From a virus, in the IMG/VR virus record IMGVR_UViG_3300045988_122038, positions 13,749-45,748 of that record: a stretch of 32,000 bases of DNA; one strand, given 5' to 3'. The notes under the pieces were generated by a model. The model was not told the DNA's origin. It was given only the letters and a program-made list of their open reading frames with translations, and ran no database searches. Shown piece after piece: positions 3,245 through 32,000 of this stretch. A program made the translations under genes and the position numbers. The stretch's first letter is position 1, and each line of letters begins with the position of its first letter.

Positions 3245-3565
3245 ATGTTTGAAAACAAGTTTTTATATACTGATATTCATATAAGTTATAAAGATACAAC
3301 AATAGTTGTTGTATGTTCAGATGATAAAGAAGTTATGTCTTTAGAAACAGATGGGTCTAAAAAATTATGGTATTACAGAGCCAATAAAGAAACGTTTAAT
3401 AGTTTGGTTGAAAAGTTATTGAATAGAGATATTGGAAATGGTCACAAAAAGGATTCAAAGTATTTTAAACTTTATTCAGGATCAAACTTAATGAAAGTGT
3501 TTAGTATTCTAAACTATATAGAATATAATACGATAAATGAGAAACTTCTTAAATTGAAAAAGTGA
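3245..3565 (+). CDS. tandem paralogue 4 (divergent)
   Basis: SD 'ggagg' upstream. Pattern ISYKDTTIVVVCS ... KETFNSLVEKLLN ... KVFSILN. Confidence 0.6.
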   Translation: MFENKFLYTDIHISYKDTTIVVVCSDDKEVMSLETDGSKKLWYYRANKETFNSLVEKLLNRDIGNGHKKDSKYFKLYSGSNLMKVFSILNYIEYNTINEKLLKLKK

Positions 3566-3600
3566 AAAACACGGTTTATAATATAGATGGTTAATTAATT

Positions 3601-3643
3601 AGGTTTGTTATTTGTGATATAGCACTAGTAACAAGCCTTTTTT
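3601..3643 (+). terminator. intrinsic terminator ending the rightward early block
   Basis: 10-bp stem AGGTTTGTTA / TAACAAGCCT (one G-U pair), 18-nt loop, followed by T5. Confidence 0.6.
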
Positions 3644-3703
3644 ATATTTAAACAAAAGAAACAAGAAAAACTTTTTGCAGCTGATCCAACTAAAAGAAGA
3701 CAT

Positions 3704-3727
3704 AAAAAAAGGACTTTTCGCAAGTCC
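3704..3727 (-). terminator. intrinsic terminator of the leftward operon (bidirectional hairpin)
   Basis: GGACTT / AAGTCC stem (3711-3716 / 3722-3727). On the - strand it is followed by T7 (the A-run at 3704-3710). It sits immediately after the stop codon at 3730-3732. Confidence 0.7.
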
Positions 3728-3729
3728 TT

Positions 3730-4299
3730 TTAAAATGGAAATTCAAACTCTTCAAGCATTTCTGTAGGTGCTGCTTTCTTCTTCTTTTTTGGTGCAGCTT
3801 TTTCAATGCTCATTTTTTCAACTTTTCCATCATTGTATATATAGCTTTCTTGTAATTTGTTTCTACTAAACAAGTCTATAGTTTTAGAAGTTGTGTTATA
3901 AGTTGCTAGCAAGCTTTTTGATCCAGGTTTACAGATCTTAAAAAGATCCTTGTTTAAAATATCAACATAGCATTTATAAATTTTGAAGAAATAACAGATA
4001 TCTTTTATTTCTTGTATATCTGGTATACATAACTCTTTTTTTGCTTCTGTATTGTAATATATTTGAATATCATAATTGAAAAGCTTGTCAAGATCATGAG
4101 CGACGAACAACCTTAAGTCATTTGTTTGAGCTGCTGCATACATGCATTTATTATGATCAAACTTAAAACCATGATCTTTTAAAACTTTTTCAGTTGAAGC
4201 GCTGGGAGTTCCTAACGCTTCAACATAAATGTGCGGTTTTTTCCGCTCATTTGTAACATAATAATTAAAATGGTTTCGTTCACGCTTCCACATTGTCAT
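3730..4299 (-). CDS. hypothetical protein (189 aa) with a Lys-rich linker and an acidic aromatic C-terminal tip ...EMLEEFEFPF
   Basis: SD AGGAGG inside the upstream gene (translational coupling). The C-terminus resembles SSB / T7 gp2.5-type acidic tails that end in Phe. Confidence 0.7.
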   Translation of the reverse strand: MTMWKRERNHFNYYVTNERKKPHIYVEALGTPSASTEKVLKDHGFKFDHNKCMYAAAQTNDLRLFVAHDLDKLFNYDIQIYYNTEAKKELCIPDIQEIKDICYFFKIYKCYVDILNKDLFKICKPGSKSLLATYNTTSKTIDLFSRNKLQESYIYNDGKVEKMSIEKAAPKKKKKAAPTEMLEEFEFPF

Positions 4300-4510
4300 T
4301 TTTAATACCTCCTAAAATATCCAAGGTATATAAAGTATTTGCAAGTAGCCAAAGTTCACGCGGTTCAAGCATCCAAGCAATGGTATCTAAACCATAGTTA
4401 AGATCATATAAACCGTTTAAATGTTTTGTAATTGTGTAAGGCTTGCAGCTAGATCCATTTAGTCGATCTAGTTTTTTTTCTGTAAACTCAATATATTCTT
4501 TATTATTCAT
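4280..4510 (-). CDS. hypothetical protein (76 aa)
   Basis: ATG at 4510 lies 8 nt after GGAGG. The track start at 4525 lacks an SD. Overlaps the downstream gene by 20 nt. Confidence 0.65.
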   Translation of the reverse strand: MNNKEYIEFTEKKLDRLNGSSCKPYTITKHLNGLYDLNYGLDTIAWMLEPRELWLLANTLYTLDILGGIKNDNVEA

Positions 4511-4512
4511 TT

Positions 4513-4785
4513 TTAAAACCTCCATTCATTATCTTTAAAAATAGTTCTAACAAGTGCATAAAGTTCGTTGCTTACTTGTTTAGAATCAACTAAAAGTTGA
4601 TCATAATAAACGCGTATAACTTTTTCACTTTCTATATATGCAAGATCATAAAAAAATGAATTAATATGATCCACTAAACATTCATATAAAAAGTCATATA
4701 CGACAAAATTACCAGAAATAAGATCATTCATATATGATCTAATTCTTGCATATTTATGCAATAATTTAATTTCAAAAAGTTCCAT
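4513..4785 (-). CDS. hypothetical protein (90 aa)
   Basis: SD AGGAGG 7 nt upstream of ATG 4785. Confidence 0.65.
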   Translation of the reverse strand: MELFEIKLLHKYARIRSYMNDLISGNFVVYDFLYECLVDHINSFFYDLAYIESEKVIRVYYDQLLVDSKQVSNELYALVRTIFKDNEWRF

Positions 4786-4802
4786 TGTTTAACCTCCTAC
4801 AA

Positions 4803-4925
4803 TTAATAAATAAGTGGTAGTAAAATATTTAAAAGGCCCAATATTATACCTATAATCAATGTAGATGTGCACGCTGCTAAATACAATTTTAAAAATGCAA
4901 GTATGAGCACCTTGACGGCGCTCAT
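4803..4925 (-). CDS. possible 40-aa hydrophobic membrane peptide, not in ORF track
   Basis: Translation MSAVKVLILAFLKLYLAACTSTLIIGIILGLLNILLPLIY. It fills the 160-nt gap between two operon genes, but there is no clear SD. Confidence 0.35.
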   Translation of the reverse strand: MSAVKVLILAFLKLYLAACTSTLIIGIILGLLNILLPLIY

Positions 4926-4945
4926 CTTGTCAAGATCTTTGCGTG

Positions 4946-5428
4946 TTAACATACTTTTTTACCTTTTGAAACAACTTTTTTAATTTCTCTAAAAATTAAA
5001 TGTGTGAGTTTTTCTTCCGCTTGGCGTTCCGTGAATTTACTTTTTTCGCTTTCGCTTTCTTCCAAAATTATCGCAAGATCTTCAACGGCGCTTCTATTGT
5101 AGTAGTAACAAGTATCTAGAACGCTTGGGAGTCCTTGACACCATTCAAAAAATAAATTCTCAATACTCATGTTTCTTTTGTCGTATTTAACTTTTTCATC
5201 ATAGAAACAATCATAAATAGCGTAAGCATATACGCTGAACATGTCGATTTGTCTTCCGTGTTTTGTATCTTCTTCAAACTTTTCAATATATGCGTATTTA
5301 TCGTAACCGGTAAAATCTACATTATCACATACATACTTTTTAATATTTTTTACAGCTTCTTTTGAATAAGTCTTTAACATTTTCTTTTTTAACCCGTCTA
5401 TGGTAGAATAGAAAAGCAATATATACAA
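4946..5428 (-). CDS. hypothetical protein (160 aa from TTG; 144 aa if from the internal ATG at 5380)
   Basis: AGGAGG (reverse complement of 5440-5445) lies 11 nt upstream of the TTG at 5428. A 9-bp hairpin (5391-5399 / 5428-5436) spans the start region. Confidence 0.6.
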   Translation of the reverse strand: MYILLFYSTIDGLKKKMLKTYSKEAVKNIKKYVCDNVDFTGYDKYAYIEKFEEDTKHGRQIDMFSVYAYAIYDCFYDEKVKYDKRNMSIENLFFEWCQGLPSVLDTCYYYNRSAVEDLAIILEESESEKSKFTERQAEEKLTHLIFREIKKVVSKGKKVC

Positions 5429-5516
5429 GACGGGTTTAACCTCCTGAATATTGTGTATATTTGCCGTTGTTGTGAACTCCTGGAAGCGGCCAAACTTGAA
5501 AGGGGTTCACGTTTTT

Positions 5517-5669
5517 TTATTTGTTTATATCCTTTTCAATTAGATCCAGGATATAAGCACTTTTTGATTCAACTTTATCAAGCTGGTTTAAGACTCTTTC
5601 ATTACTTAAAGGAACTAAAACCGTTACACGTTTATAATGACTTTTTTTATATTTGTTGTCATAAACCAT
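5517..5669 (-). CDS. ribbon-helix-helix (CopG/Arc-like) DNA-binding protein, 50 aa from ATG (59 aa if it starts at ATA 5696)
   Basis: Hand translation MVYDNKYKKSHYKRVTVLVPLSNERVLNQLDKVESKSAYILDLIEKDINK. The basic beta-strand YKRVTVLVP followed by two helices is typical of RHH proteins. The strong SD AAGGAGGG (reverse complement of 5703-5710) is correctly spaced only for the in-frame ATA at 5696. Confidence 0.55.
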   Translation of the reverse strand: MVYDNKYKKSHYKRVTVLVPLSNERVLNQLDKVESKSAYILDLIEKDINK

Positions 5670-5713
5670 CTTGTTTAGTTTTGCTTTTTCTTCTATGTTT
5701 ATCCCTCCTTTTC

Positions 5714-5742
5714 TTGACTATTTAAATAAACGGCGCTATAAT
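5714..5742 (+). promoter_or_regulatory. near-consensus sigma-A-type promoter firing rightward
   Basis: TTGACT (5714-5719), 17-nt spacer, TATAAT (5737-5742). Confidence 0.55.
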
Positions 5743-5785
5743 TTATTTGCTTATTTAGTGACGCTATTCATTGACTTTTATATCT

Positions 5786-5798
5786 ATGAGTAAGCGCC
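5786..5798 (+). repeat. direct repeat core ATGAGTAAGCGCC, copy 1 (similarity extends to ~38 nt)
   Basis: Identical 13-mer at 5922-5934. Followed by the hairpin TAGGCTT...AAGCCTA. Confidence 0.7.
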
Positions 5799-5921
5799 CT
5801 TTTTTTATGTCTAGGCTTATTTTAATGTGAAGCCTAAACAATAACTTATTTAATAAACTTATAAACTTATCCATATTATCAAGTCCAATCTATCAATTTA
5901 AAGTTGTCTTGGCTTGGCTTT

Positions 5922-5934
5922 ATGAGTAAGCGCC
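5922..5934 (+). repeat. direct repeat core ATGAGTAAGCGCC, copy 2
   Basis: 136 nt from copy 1. Followed by the hairpin GTGTAAGC-TTAACTT-GCTTACAC. Confidence 0.7.
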
Positions 5935-5971
5935 GTTTGTTTTGTGTAAGCTTAACTTGCTTACACTTAAT

Positions 5972-5999
5972 ATTATATACAGTTATAACCGTATGTCAA
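5972..5999 (-). promoter_or_regulatory. near-consensus sigma-A-type promoter firing leftward toward the RHH operon
   Basis: On the - strand: TTGACA (reverse complement of 5994-5999), 16-nt spacer, TATAAT (reverse complement of 5972-5977). Confidence 0.5.
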
Positions 6000-6069
6000 T
6001 AAAAAATAATAATATTTTTTTTGCTCATTTTTTCAAAAAGCTTTTTGTTTTTGAAACGTGCACGCAAGC

Positions 6070-6130
6070 GCCTATTTAAAAGGCTTTTAAGCGTGTTCGG
6101 TTCTAGTCTTATAACATATAGTTAACAGAC
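6070..6130 (+). repeat. copy 2 of the ~60-nt conserved non-coding element
   Basis: See copy 1 (1896-1955). Here it lies 20 nt upstream of the strong terminator at 6151. Confidence 0.55.
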
Positions 6131-6150
6131 TATAAAATATATACATGTAT

Positions 6151-6175
6151 GGACGTTGTGAACGTCCTTTTTTTT
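6151..6175 (+). terminator. strong intrinsic terminator
   Basis: GGACGTT (6151-6157) / AACGTCC (6161-6167), 3-nt loop, T8 (6168-6175). Confidence 0.75.
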
Positions 6176-6399
6176 ATGTGGTCTTGCACCAGATAAAGGA
6201 AGACAAGTAGCACGCTTGAACGCATGGGACGGGTGCATATTATCCAATGTATGTTGGAGCTGTTGGAGTTTGCTATATATAAGAACGCGTACGCACGTTC
6301 TATTAATAGAGCTATGGCCATGGTATGAAACAACGCTTTCAACAAGTCATGTTGAAACATCTTTCAACACAATAATAAATATGTGAATATCATATGACT

Positions 6400-6600
6400 G
6401 AAGCCGTTAACGGGGCGGTGTGGTGGTAGCTGCATAGGTTTGATTTTTAACCCTGAAAGCGCCCAGGGCTGGGATCAGATCAGCATAGACCCCCCTATCT
6501 TTCAAAAGTTTTTTGTGTTTTGGGGAACGGCGTGGGGAGTTTAAAAAAACCGGGTCATGAGTGCATGAGAGGGGGTAAAATCTGAATTTCTTCATTTTGT
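6400..6600. other. candidate cos-site / structured-RNA region (GC-rich core of the ORF-less gap)
   Basis: G and C runs (GGGGCGGTGTGGTGG at 6412, C6 at 6490-6495, GGGGAACGGCGTGGGGAG at 6522, G5 at 6571-6575) lie directly upstream of HNH-TerS-TerL. The cleavage position cannot be read from the sequence. Confidence 0.25.
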
Positions 6601-6611
6601 ACAGTGTACAA
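6597..6611. promoter_or_regulatory. perfect 7-1-7 palindrome TTGTACAgTGTACAA (operator/activator site), copy 1
   Basis: The 19-mer ATTTTGTACAGTGTACAAA (6594-6612) recurs exactly at 30291-30309. In both copies a TATTnT hexamer lies 13 nt downstream (here 6625-6630). Confidence 0.55.
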
Positions 6612-6705
6612 AGAAAAACCGTGATATTCTGTAGTCGTGAAGATTGGAAAACATCTTCTAGAACAAACAAGGTAGTTCTTGGATTGTTTCATTTTAGTGC
6701 CCGTT

Positions 6706-6740
6706 GAAAAAGACCTGTGGAAACATGGGTCTTTTTCATA
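6706..6740. terminator. bidirectional terminator-like hairpin upstream of the HNH gene
   Basis: AAAAAGACC ... GGTCTTTTT with a 12-nt loop. Confidence 0.35.
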
Positions 6741-6828
6741 TCACTGCATTCAAAGTATTTACTGTTAGTTTTTGTCGTCCTTTAAATCTGTTAACTGTAG
6801 TTATGGTCAAAACTTTGAATGTAGCGAT

Positions 6829-7215
6829 ATGAAAAAATATTATGGTTCAGAAGCAACAAAAACAGGTGCTAGAAATTATGCTAGAAAATTTTACTCAAGC
6901 AAGGCTTGGGAAAAGAAAAGCAAAGCGTATAGAAAGGCACATCCACTTTGTGAAAGATGTTTGAAAAAAGGTATCTATACCAGGTCGACTTGTGTGCATC
7001 ACAAAACACACATTGACCAGGACAACTATAGAGATGTACACATTCTATTTGGCGATTCCAATTTGGAAGCGTTGTGTGACTTATGTCATGCTGAAGAACA
7101 TTCAAAACGTAAACCATCTTTTGAATTTGATGAAAAAGGAATGCTTATAGGATGTGGAAGGGAGGATGATGAATGCAAAAAGGAGCATGGAAAAAAAGAA
7201 TCAATTCACAACTAG
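6829..7215 (+). CDS. phage-associated HNH endonuclease (packaging accessory)
   Basis: Motifs WEKKSKAYRKAHPLCERC, VHHKTHI, NLEALCDLCHAEEH. First ATG in frame; sits upstream of the terminase genes. Confidence 0.85.
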   Translation: MKKYYGSEATKTGARNYARKFYSSKAWEKKSKAYRKAHPLCERCLKKGIYTRSTCVHHKTHIDQDNYRDVHILFGDSNLEALCDLCHAEEHSKRKPSFEFDEKGMLIGCGREDDECKKEHGKKESIHN

Positions 7216-13452: not shown

Positions 13453-13849
13453 TGTATATTGCGATATGTCACAACTTGGGCCTGAAATCAGAAAGATGAT
13501 TCAAGAATATAAAGAGCATTCTTTGGCGCAGATTGACAGAGCAGTAGAAGAAACTACAAAAGATTCTAAAGACATTGTTAAAGCTAAGGCCAATGTAGAC
13601 CATAGAAACACGCGCAGAAAGGGAAAATATAAAAGGTCTATAACATATAAGATAGAACGTGAATTAGCTCATACACGCGGTGTTATTTATGCGAGTGGCC
13701 ATGAATACTCATTAACTCATTTATTAGAAAACGGACATAATTTATGGAATTCTCCTAGACGTACACGTGCATTTAAGCACTGGAAAGATGGAGAAACAAA
13801 CGCAATCAAGGAACTGCCAAGTTTAATCGAAAAATATTTGAAAGGATAA
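13439..13849 (+). CDS. HK97 gp10-like tail component
   Basis: TTG start 6 nt after GGTGA. Size and position fit, and the segment VEETTKDSKDIVKAKANVD...GKYKRSITYK fits the family pattern. Confidence 0.5.
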   Translation: MATNDVYCDMSQLGPEIRKMIQEYKEHSLAQIDRAVEETTKDSKDIVKAKANVDHRNTRRKGKYKRSITYKIERELAHTRGVIYASGHEYSLTHLLENGHNLWNSPRRTRAFKHWKDGETNAIKELPSLIEKYLKG

Positions 13850-29366: not shown

Positions 29367-29786
29367 ATGATTAATAGTATTGCTACGGCTGTTCAGACAG
29401 TCGATAATTCAAATAATGTATTATTTCCAACGGACAGAGTAAGGACGAAATCTTGTCAATGTGCATGTAAAGGTTGGCTTGCTCATGATCTAGGAAGTGG
29501 ATTGTTTACACTAACAAAGCCAGGTATCTATGAAGTAACTTATACTGCGGATATTACGAGTGCAGCGGCAGGACAAGCTTCTTTAGTGCTTGAACTAAAC
29601 GGAGAAGCAATTGGTGGAACACAATCTATTTATACTGTTGCAACTGCAAGTGCGTATGGAAATGTAAGCGGAGACACTCTAATTCAAGTTCCATGCGGTG
29701 CATCTTATACAATTGCATTAGCAAATAACAGTGGTTTAGACTTAACAGTCCAAAACGCAAACATCGTTATTAAGAAGATTGCGTAG
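29367..29786 (+). CDS. BclA C-terminal-domain-like (C1q/TNF-like jelly-roll) protein, 139 aa, no collagen region
   Basis: The pattern FTLTKPGIYEVTYTADITSAAAGQASLVLELNGEAIGGT ... ANIVIKKIA parallels my recollection of the B. anthracis BclA C-terminal domain (FVISETGFYKITV...IQVNGVPVPGT...IIIEKVA). Confidence 0.55.
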   Translation: MINSIATAVQTVDNSNNVLFPTDRVRTKSCQCACKGWLAHDLGSGLFTLTKPGIYEVTYTADITSAAAGQASLVLELNGEAIGGTQSIYTVATASAYGNVSGDTLIQVPCGASYTIALANNSGLDLTVQNANIVIKKIA

Positions 29787-31946: not shown

Positions 31947-32000
31947 GGTCCAGTGGTGTAGTGGTTAACATGCCTCCCTGTCACGGAGGAGATCGTGGGT
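31947..32000 (+). tRNA. tRNA-Asp (anticodon GTC), 5' part; truncated by the window end
   Basis: GGTCCAG-TG-GTGT-AGTGGTTA-ACAT-G-CCTCC-CTGTCAC-GGAGG-AGATC-GTGGG-T folds as acceptor, D arm, anticodon arm and the start of the T arm. Close to the Bacillus tRNA-Asp sequence as I remember it. Confidence 0.9.

Follow-up and report, generated by a model that had tools for sequence, protein, structure and literature searches.

A counter-oriented gene cassette at the cos end of a temperate phage: a candidate early counter-defense unit with an exchangeable first gene

Background

In phage T7 the class I early region, which includes gene 0.3 (Ocr), and in phage T5 the pre-early region place anti-restriction and takeover genes at the end of the DNA that enters the cell first, where strong promoters for the host polymerase direct transcription inward. 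This paper concerns a cassette of seven small genes that shares this arrangement in part. It lies in 32,000 nucleotides (nt) of viral DNA (positions 13,749 to 45,748 of IMG/VR record IMGVR_UViG_3300045988_122038; here called the window), which belong to a prophage within a 131-kb bacterial contig. Like the T7 and T5 regions, the cassette adjoins a physical DNA end, has a host-type promoter, and reads inward. Unlike them, it is carried by a temperate HNH/cos siphovirus, runs against all other genes, and has a polarity of entry that is presumed; in addition, neither Ocr nor the T5 pre-early proteins have relatives among the window proteins.

Anti-defense genes are concentrated at the part of the DNA that is first to enter, and their expression is early; Ocr is among the cited precedents (PMC11541004). 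The leading regions of conjugative plasmids, with ardA, psiB, and ssb, contain small variable genes near the first-entering end, among which ArdA recurs as it does in relatives of the cassette; they also encode a single-stranded DNA-binding protein (SSB), where the cassette encodes a protein with an SSB-like tail (p189), and many of their uncharacterized families have been inferred to be anti-defense by position (PMC11541004). The cassette differs from these regions in being part of a double-stranded DNA phage, in having a σ70 promoter rather than a single-strand (Frpo) promoter, and in having no psiB, methyltransferase, or true SSB.

Other mobile elements group their anti-defense genes beside a conserved anti-CRISPR-associated (aca) gene (PMC7648647). 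These anti-CRISPR (acr)-aca operons share with the cassette a very strong promoter with an inverted-repeat operator, a small putative DNA-binding gene, and swappable small effectors. However, aca usually trails its operon, whereas here the regulator gene either comes first in the operon or is divergently oriented. The ArdA protein of Tn916 (ORF18, PDB 2W82; PMC2731889) has counterparts in 21 related phages, in which ArdA holds the slot that p144 fills in the window, with the same downstream junction; p144 itself is not homologous to ArdA, is not acidic, is predicted to be all-alpha, and has no match in PDB. Finally, P2-like phages and P4-like satellites carry variable cargo between conserved phage genes near cos (PMC9122126). 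Their cargo consists of recognizable anti-phage systems expressed from the prophage, whereas the cassette has no detectable defense gene and its relatives carry an anti-restriction gene.

Organization of the cassette

A run of minus-strand open reading frames (ORFs) spans 3730-5874, while all other credible genes of the window are on the plus strand, and GC skew falls below zero only at ~3.5-6 kb (Table 1). A first-pass annotation, made from the letters of the window, had described here a counter-oriented operon of five or six genes, with early genes on one side, the packaging module on the other, and a promoter region and terminator of its own. That description holds in its essentials, including the position, the promoter, and the terminator, once certain starts and lengths are corrected and a seventh gene, of 36 amino acids (aa), is added. 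Thus, the proteins of 189, 76, and 90 aa stand as they were, a supposed 160-aa protein becomes p144, and what had appeared as a possible 40-aa hydrophobic peptide is a 49-aa membrane peptide (TM49).

The start of p144 is assigned to the ATG at 5380, since nearly all of the best 150 of 453 family representatives align from residue 17 of the 160-aa ORF, and since the same DNA upstream of this ATG is kept in relatives ahead of unrelated genes. Genes within the cassette are closely packed, as had been noted: the stop codon of p144 and the start codon of TM49 share the sequence ATGTTAA, the stop codon of p90 (4513-4515) ends 2 nt ahead of the p76 ATG at 4510, and p76 and p189 overlap by 20 nt. The Shine-Dalgarno (SD) sequence AGGAGG is present ahead of p90, p76, and p189. 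From such overlaps and SD sequences the first-pass annotation had deduced a stoichiometric complex, which is at this stage a putative one. Comparison with relatives gives dN/dS ratios of 0.11 for p189, 0.16 for p76/81, 0.18 for p90, 0.20 for p144, and 0.43 for both TM49 and the gene of the putative regulator. Every gene in this comparison is thus under purifying selection, and because of these ratios the ORFs can be taken as real rather than as chance.

The earlier view that the proteins belong to no recognized family is borne out, as none of the cassette proteins has a significant match in Pfam, PHROGs, PADLOC, or NCBIfam. No defense, toxin, or enzymatic domain is found; searches of Pfam and NCBIfam detect no nuclease, ATPase, nucleotidyltransferase (NTase), or TIR domain, the six window cassette proteins that were compared with the PADLOC defense models match none of them, and Pfam, NCBIfam, and PADLOC reveal no toxin family. 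Megablast of 3500-6200 against phage genomes also gives no match. Any function given below to a protein of the cassette is a putative one.

Location at a physical end of the virion DNA

Sequencing adapters retained in related contigs mark the ends of the packaged DNA. Three independent viral contigs (L093, L101, and L111) begin exactly at the equivalent of 6539, with GTT[T/C]AAAAAAAC, and in two of these three an Illumina adapter immediately precedes the start. The opposite end of the 44.7-kb contig L101, designated L048, consists of adapter followed by the reverse complement of the sequence that ends at 6527. Positions 6527 and 6539 are physical DNA ends that adapter ligation has captured. 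The 11 nt that lie between them, CGGCGTGGGGA, are absent from both ends of this complete relative. Since end repair removes 3' overhangs, the loss of these nucleotides at both ends implies that cleavage at cos leaves an 11-nt 3' cohesive overhang. Cohesive ends of the 3' type are known in a Firmicutes phage, phiS63 of Clostridium perfringens (PMC3442830).

With the ends so placed, the virion chromosome extends from 6539 (HNH, terminase, and onward) round to 6527. The cassette, which the first-pass annotation had not recognized as abutting the cos end, is therefore the last transcription unit of the chromosome, reading inward from a promoter ~530 bp from the right end. The ~780 bp that separate this promoter from the HNH gene are non-coding and are 85-93% identical in 47-49 relatives, with a sharp boundary between conserved and variable sequence at ~6013; the right-terminal region within it (6015-6527) has no match in Rfam.

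Two further observations concern this end. On the plus strand, the interval from the cassette promoter to cos contains a strong terminator-like hairpin at 6151-6167 (GGACGTTGTGAACGTCC followed by T8), which would keep any rightward transcription from reaching the DNA end and the late genes. In addition, the presence of adapter sequence at the termini of public IMG/VR contigs of this phage group means that those records are contaminated.

An exchangeable first gene and a fixed core

Homologues of p189 number 129 proteins, all of them close (at least 57% identity). The flanks of p189 were examined in 58 loci, and ORFs were clustered over 57 loci. In 58 of the 58, p189 occupies an identical syntenic position of one phage lineage. 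The genes that accompany it form a core that begins with TM49 (intact in 55 of 58 loci) and continues with p90 (34 of 57), p76/81 (57 loci), and p189 itself (58). Occurrence of the core in other prophages at variable positions, raised by the first-pass annotation, is not found; the core genes are conserved as a syntenic feature of related phages only, a pattern that had been named in advance as grounds against an accessory defense, exclusion, or takeover system. The accessory content of the cassette varies between related phages, and this variable region is bounded by the conserved cos region and by conserved early genes. Across relatives it contains at least six unrelated alleles of the gene that precedes TM49 (slot 1) and three optional downstream genes.

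In 21 loci slot 1 encodes a bona fide ArdA (Pfam E 1.8e-36; match to the Tn916 ORF18 structure 2W82, E 2.6e-19). Another 21 loci encode one of two unrelated, very acidic proteins (12 and 9 loci); these proteins are c27 and c33. Members of the p144 family fill the slot in 7 loci, and a shorter member (hhalign probability 99.2) does so in 3 more; the remaining occupants are rarer alternatives. Whichever slot-1 gene is present, the junction with TM49 is identical. The ArdA, c27, and c33 proteins of relatives contain 40-42 Asp+Glu in ~160 aa versus 9-15 basic residues. Across relatives, only ArdA among the cassette genes has a known function. The possibility that c27, c33, and a third protein, c31, are remote homologues of ArdA was considered and rejected, as hhalign comparisons with ArdA and with each other indicate that they are unrelated. 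Searches of PDB with c27 and c33, by sequence and by profile, give no match, and the variable genes of relatives yield no defense system in PADLOC, only low-complexity or generic helix-turn-helix (HTH) matches.

The optional genes, which follow p189 in the majority of relatives, are absent from the window. One, present in 31 loci, encodes a protein of 185-191 aa (MGYIGNKMSVRAYEAYESGEKPL...SWHHTGSYFNET), and the others encode a 104-aa protein (12 loci) and an acidic 156-aa protein (9 loci). Examples are found at 6456-7031 and 7099-7569 of L011 and at 4601-4915 of L050; they match no family.

The occupant of slot 1 in the window belongs to a widespread, uncharacterized family of 453 representatives (50% clustering, E<=1e-3). 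The AlphaFold2 model of p144 (pLDDT 94) is all-alpha and has no fold match in PDB by Foldseek, nor does p144 have a profile match there; in a viral library the model matches uncharacterized phage proteins only, for example from Bacillus phage PBC2. A tblastn search of phage and plasmid collections gives no match, and the longer proteins of the family (up to 358 aa) have no Pfam domain and uninformative cluster names. No protein of the window matches the ArdA profile PF07275, and when the p144 family, p189, p76, and p90 are compared with the ArdA alignment of the relatives, hhalign probabilities are at most 0.4. Genes of the p144 family were located in 53 distinct loci of other viral lineages. 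In 46 of these a strand switch precedes the family member directly or with one ORF in between, and in 21 an opposite-strand large terminase gene is situated 0.8-3 kb upstream. The placement of the family at the head of a unit that faces away from packaging genes is thus conserved in phages well outside this group.

Among the core proteins, TM49 is hydrophobic (Kyte-Doolittle >1.6 over residues 10-49). No Pfam family or PDB match is found for p76 and p90, and no relatives of these two proteins were detected outside the lineage. For p189, AlphaFold2 predicts two beta-rich domains (pLDDT 75) and a disordered, Lys-rich linker (residues 166-187, pLDDT <50). Residues 1-57 are predicted to form three strands, a helix, and two strands. 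The C-terminus, ...(E/D)F(E)FPF, and Lys171 and Lys172 are invariant in 59 aligned sequences. The tail of bacterial SSB has the sequence DDD(I/L)PF, and the layout of the p189 tail recalls this tip. Among relatives of p189 (P0107-P0118) there are at least eight different in-frame internal deletions, all of which keep the N-terminus and the C-terminal KKKK...FPF tail.

Promoter, operator, and putative regulator

The cassette promoter matches the σ70 consensus at 12 of 12 positions and is preceded by an A/T tract. Neither of its hexamers varies in 22 relatives, and at most of the remaining loci the promoter matches at 11 of 12. Within the 16-nt spacer there is a palindrome, ATACGGTTATAACTGTAT. 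The spacer varies between relatives that have the perfect promoter, while dyad symmetry (ACAT-N10-ATGT) is always kept; this has the look of a repressor operator of diverging specificity. There is no second copy of the palindrome in ~42 kb of the prophage (the window plus ~10 kb upstream). Control of the cassette by the main CI repressor was considered and rejected on the grounds that the palindrome is single in this ~42 kb and that the CI-type operators differ from it.

Two forms of control region are found among the relatives. In one, the perfect promoter precedes a leader of 550-610 nt that contains either the gene of the putative regulator or only small ORFs; in the other, an 11/12 promoter lies 315-340 nt upstream and an HTH gene is present on the opposite strand. 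At ~+1 to +22 of the predicted mRNA, an 8-bp stem (GUGUAAGC...GCUUACAC) forms a hairpin with a stem that is invariant and a loop that varies in relatives; the scan scored a plus-strand terminator-like site here. The 36-aa leader ORF is conserved at +95 to +102 in 12 loci, with conservative substitutions, and 22-nt direct repeats are located within it (5785-5806) and ahead of it (5921-5942). Two other families of small ORFs replace the 36-aa ORF in other leader types.

Farther downstream, in the stretch that leads from a strong AGGAGG to the start codon of p144, the minus strand contains the inverted repeat CCCGTCT...AGACGGG (5392-5444), and the same DNA is kept before unrelated slot-1 genes. 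Conservation extends to the repeat itself, in which one change may be compensatory. A bridging hairpin that would join the SD sequence to the p144 ATG was considered; the folding energy does not favor it (z = -0.92). Rfam reveals no non-coding RNA in the cassette region at gathering or relaxed thresholds.

The leader also contains the gene of a putative small basic DNA-binding protein, which the first-pass annotation had called a ribbon-helix-helix (RHH) protein. Searches of Pfam, NCBIfam, and PDB with this protein or with a six-sequence profile find no RHH profile or structure, even at E<=10, and none of its 71 homologues (0/71) has a Pfam domain. The label comes only from a CopG-like sequence pattern, KRVTVLVP...SKSAYILDLIEKD, which resembles that of CopG, KRLTITL...SKSAMI. 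The alternative start at 5696 is plausible, as relatives have an N-terminal extension of the same length. The gene is present in only 13 of 57 loci; others have the opposite-strand HTH gene instead. Aca is reportedly a small repressor of a strong acr promoter, an observation attributed to Stanley et al. in 2019. The RHH-like protein may likewise be a repressor, and if so, it would regulate its own synthesis.

A proposed role for the cassette

The reading to which we give somewhat better than an even chance is that the cassette is an early counter-defense or host-takeover unit, located at the DNA end of a temperate phage. The right end of the chromosome would be the first to enter a naive cell, and host RNA polymerase would then fire the consensus promoter ~530 bp from this end, so that the cassette would be expressed immediately. 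The product of the first slot, ArdA in many relatives, a very acidic protein in some, and p144 here, would disarm a host barrier, and phages would swap the gene in this slot to suit the barriers that they meet. Synthesis of the core proteins TM49, p90, p76, and p189 would follow, and the SSB-like tip of p189 may engage host enzymes of DNA repair or recombination. Finally, a small DNA-binding protein (RHH-like here, the product of the opposite-strand HTH gene elsewhere) would shut off the promoter through the palindromic operator in its spacer.

Several points weigh against this reading. No window protein has a demonstrated or homology-supported anti-defense function, so that the argument is one from position and allelic exchange. 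Unlike the acidic slot-1 proteins of relatives, p144 has 26 Asp+Glu vs 24 Lys+Arg (pI 5.8), and hhalign shows no relationship with ArdA (probability 0.4). The core genes are fixed, not variable, and could equally provide an ordinary, lineage-specific phage function. The location of the right end relies on one adapter-tagged contig end. The direction of packaging is assumed from lambda and HK97, and the rule that the end packaged last is ejected first has been challenged in vitro for lambda (PMC10287942). The promoter palindrome is present also in loci that lack the RHH-like gene. Because the operator is not that of CI, the cassette may be transcribed in lysogens as well.

Such transcription is what one would expect if the cassette were instead a moron, expressed from the prophage to protect the lysogen by superinfection exclusion, abortive infection, or another anti-phage defense. 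TM49 and its partners would then block incoming phage DNA, with the small regulator keeping expression steady. The counter-orientation, the host-type promoter and terminator, the lack of a CI-type operator, such that the promoter need not be repressed in lysogens, and the small membrane protein are all compatible with this idea, as is the fact that variable loci beside cos in P2- and P4-like elements are known defense hotspots (PMC9122126). We nevertheless consider it unlikely. The first-pass annotation had offered defense, toxin-antitoxin, and abortive-infection modules as candidates, and neither the window nor the variable genes of relatives contain a PADLOC system or a toxin domain, just as nuclease, ATPase, NTase, and TIR domains are missing. 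The core does not behave as a mobile module would, being a fixed syntenic feature of one lineage. Moreover, ArdA, the only slot gene of known function, disables host restriction, which is of no help to a lysogen; a defense reading is disfavored because this one known gene is anti-defense. Of the options that had been listed earlier, host takeover is thus the best fit.

The same fixed position of the core, in all relatives, could also mean that only slot 1 is accessory and that p90, p76, and p189 make up an ordinary DNA-metabolism module of the lineage, for example a non-canonical SSB or a recombination mediator complex for replication or end joining. For such a module one can cite the SSB-like layout of p189 (folded beta-rich domains followed by a disordered linker and by an acidic-aromatic end, ...FPF, that does not vary), an order of strands and helix in residues 1-57 that would be compatible with an oligonucleotide-binding (OB)-like fold, and the strong purifying selection on p189. 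Yet p189 has no SSB or OB match in Pfam (PF00436), PHROGs, or NCBIfam and no significant match in PDB by Foldseek or by sequence (PC4/Sub1 probability <=0.14), the differing in-frame deletions in several relatives argue against an essential role in replication, and the module is apart from the replication genes and opposite to them in direction; we rate this proposal as a poorer prospect still. Much more improbable is a lysis-lysogeny decision module, an anti-repressor, or a secondary immunity region, in which the regulator and palindrome would constitute a second switch. As in immunity regions, the operator sequence differs among relatives while the dyad is kept, and alternative types of regulator (RHH-like or divergent HTH) are found at the same place. 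However, ~15 kb away the phage already has a switch of the standard kind, with a CI-like repressor, a tyrosine recombinase, a divergent early promoter, and operators unlike that of the cassette; Pfam and PHROGs detect nothing like an anti-repressor in the cassette; and ArdA in slot 1 would have no role there.

A bolder version of the counter-defense reading can be proposed, although we think it improbable. In this version p144 would be the founder of a widespread, structurally novel family of first-expressed proteins that can replace ArdA as an inhibitor of restriction or of another DNA-sensing defense, and the core would be a new host-takeover device, in which the p189 tip captures or diverts SSB-client repair and recombination enzymes of the host at the entering end.

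Other features of the region and the prophage

Coordinates of the features discussed above are collected in Table 1.

Table 1. Features of the cassette and the adjoining cos region, in window coordinates
Feature	Position	Strand	Description or basis
25-nt motif TTAACCATCTATATTATAAACCGTG	3570-3594	minus	downstream of cassette in window
Intrinsic terminator of cassette	3707-3731	minus	10-bp stem, then T run
p189	3730-4299	minus	189 aa; core protein
p76	4280-4510	minus	76 aa, acidic core protein; ORF open to 4525 (81 aa)
p90	4513-4785	minus	90 aa, acidic
TM49	4803-4952	minus	49-aa membrane peptide; first gene of conserved core
p144	4946-5380	minus	144 aa; fills variable first slot; ORF reaches TTG at 5428 (160 aa)
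Putative small basic DNA-binding protein (RHH-like)	5517-5696	minus	50 aa from ATG 5669, 59 aa from 5696
Small basic ORF in leader	5764-5874	minus	36 aa
Hairpin GUGUAAGC...GCUUACAC	5944-5966	minus	8-bp stem; ~+1 to +22 of predicted mRNA
Cassette promoter TTGACA-16-TATAAT	5972-5999	minus	12/12 consensus, A/T tract upstream; consensus scan
Palindrome ATACGGTTATAACTGTAT	5977-5994		inside promoter spacer; candidate operator; repeat analysis
Conserved non-coding right-terminal region	6015-6527		between cassette promoter and cos end
cos cleavage site CGGCGTGGGGA	6528-6538		11 nt; adapter-tagged contig ends of relatives

The 25-nt motif of Table 1 has the consensus TTAACCAT[C/T]TATATTATAAACCGTG and in other relatives is located directly ahead of the gene for the RHH-like protein. 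In L021 (at 2535 and 4717), L063, and L065, two copies of the motif form a direct repeat that flanks the whole cassette. The plus strand of the motif contains an 11/12 promoter-like site (3554-3582) aimed into the cassette. The motif could be a recombination joint or a promoter/operator.

Beyond the cassette and cos, the window continues with genes for the HNH endonuclease, the small and large terminase subunits (TerS and TerL), the portal, and structural proteins; the left end of the virion DNA is thus followed by HNH, TerS, and TerL. On the upstream side of the window, within ~10 kb, a CI-like repressor is encoded divergently from an early operon whose products include a tyrosine recombinase, a DnaA-like protein, and a dUTPase. 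The lysogeny switch can be seen in L215 (21-600 and 1284-2183), where a CI-like HTH repressor is accompanied by repeated AATGTATTAT operators and the tyrosine recombinase gene lies within the rightward early operon, not beside the repressor. A relative, L214, has a Dam methylase and a faint match to a Lar-like restriction-alleviation protein in its early region.

Near the right edge of the window, a 358-aa protein that was considered as an integrase is actually an Amidase_2 endolysin. Just after its gene, the 5' part of a tRNA gene (31947-32000, Rfam 35.5 bits) is cut by the window edge; this could be a tRNA of the phage or the one that serves as attachment site. A BclA C-terminal (C1q-like) domain (E 2.4e-10) is found in a 139-aa protein encoded at 29367-29786, between the tail and lysis genes. 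Searches found no closely related isolated phage, and the sole match in genome collections is a Solobacterium metagenome-assembled genome. The phage probably infects Solobacterium or one of its relatives within the Erysipelotrichaceae.

Implications

If the counter-defense reading is true, temperate cos phages that infect Gram-positive bacteria of the mouth and gut arrange counter-defense as T7 and conjugative plasmids do, with a swappable set of small inhibitors at the DNA end behind a burst promoter. The locus would then be a position-defined source of candidate anti-restriction and anti-defense proteins, including p144 (453 clusters), c27, c33, and the core proteins. Such candidates would be relevant to phage host range, to the design of phage therapy, and to getting DNA into restrictive bacteria.

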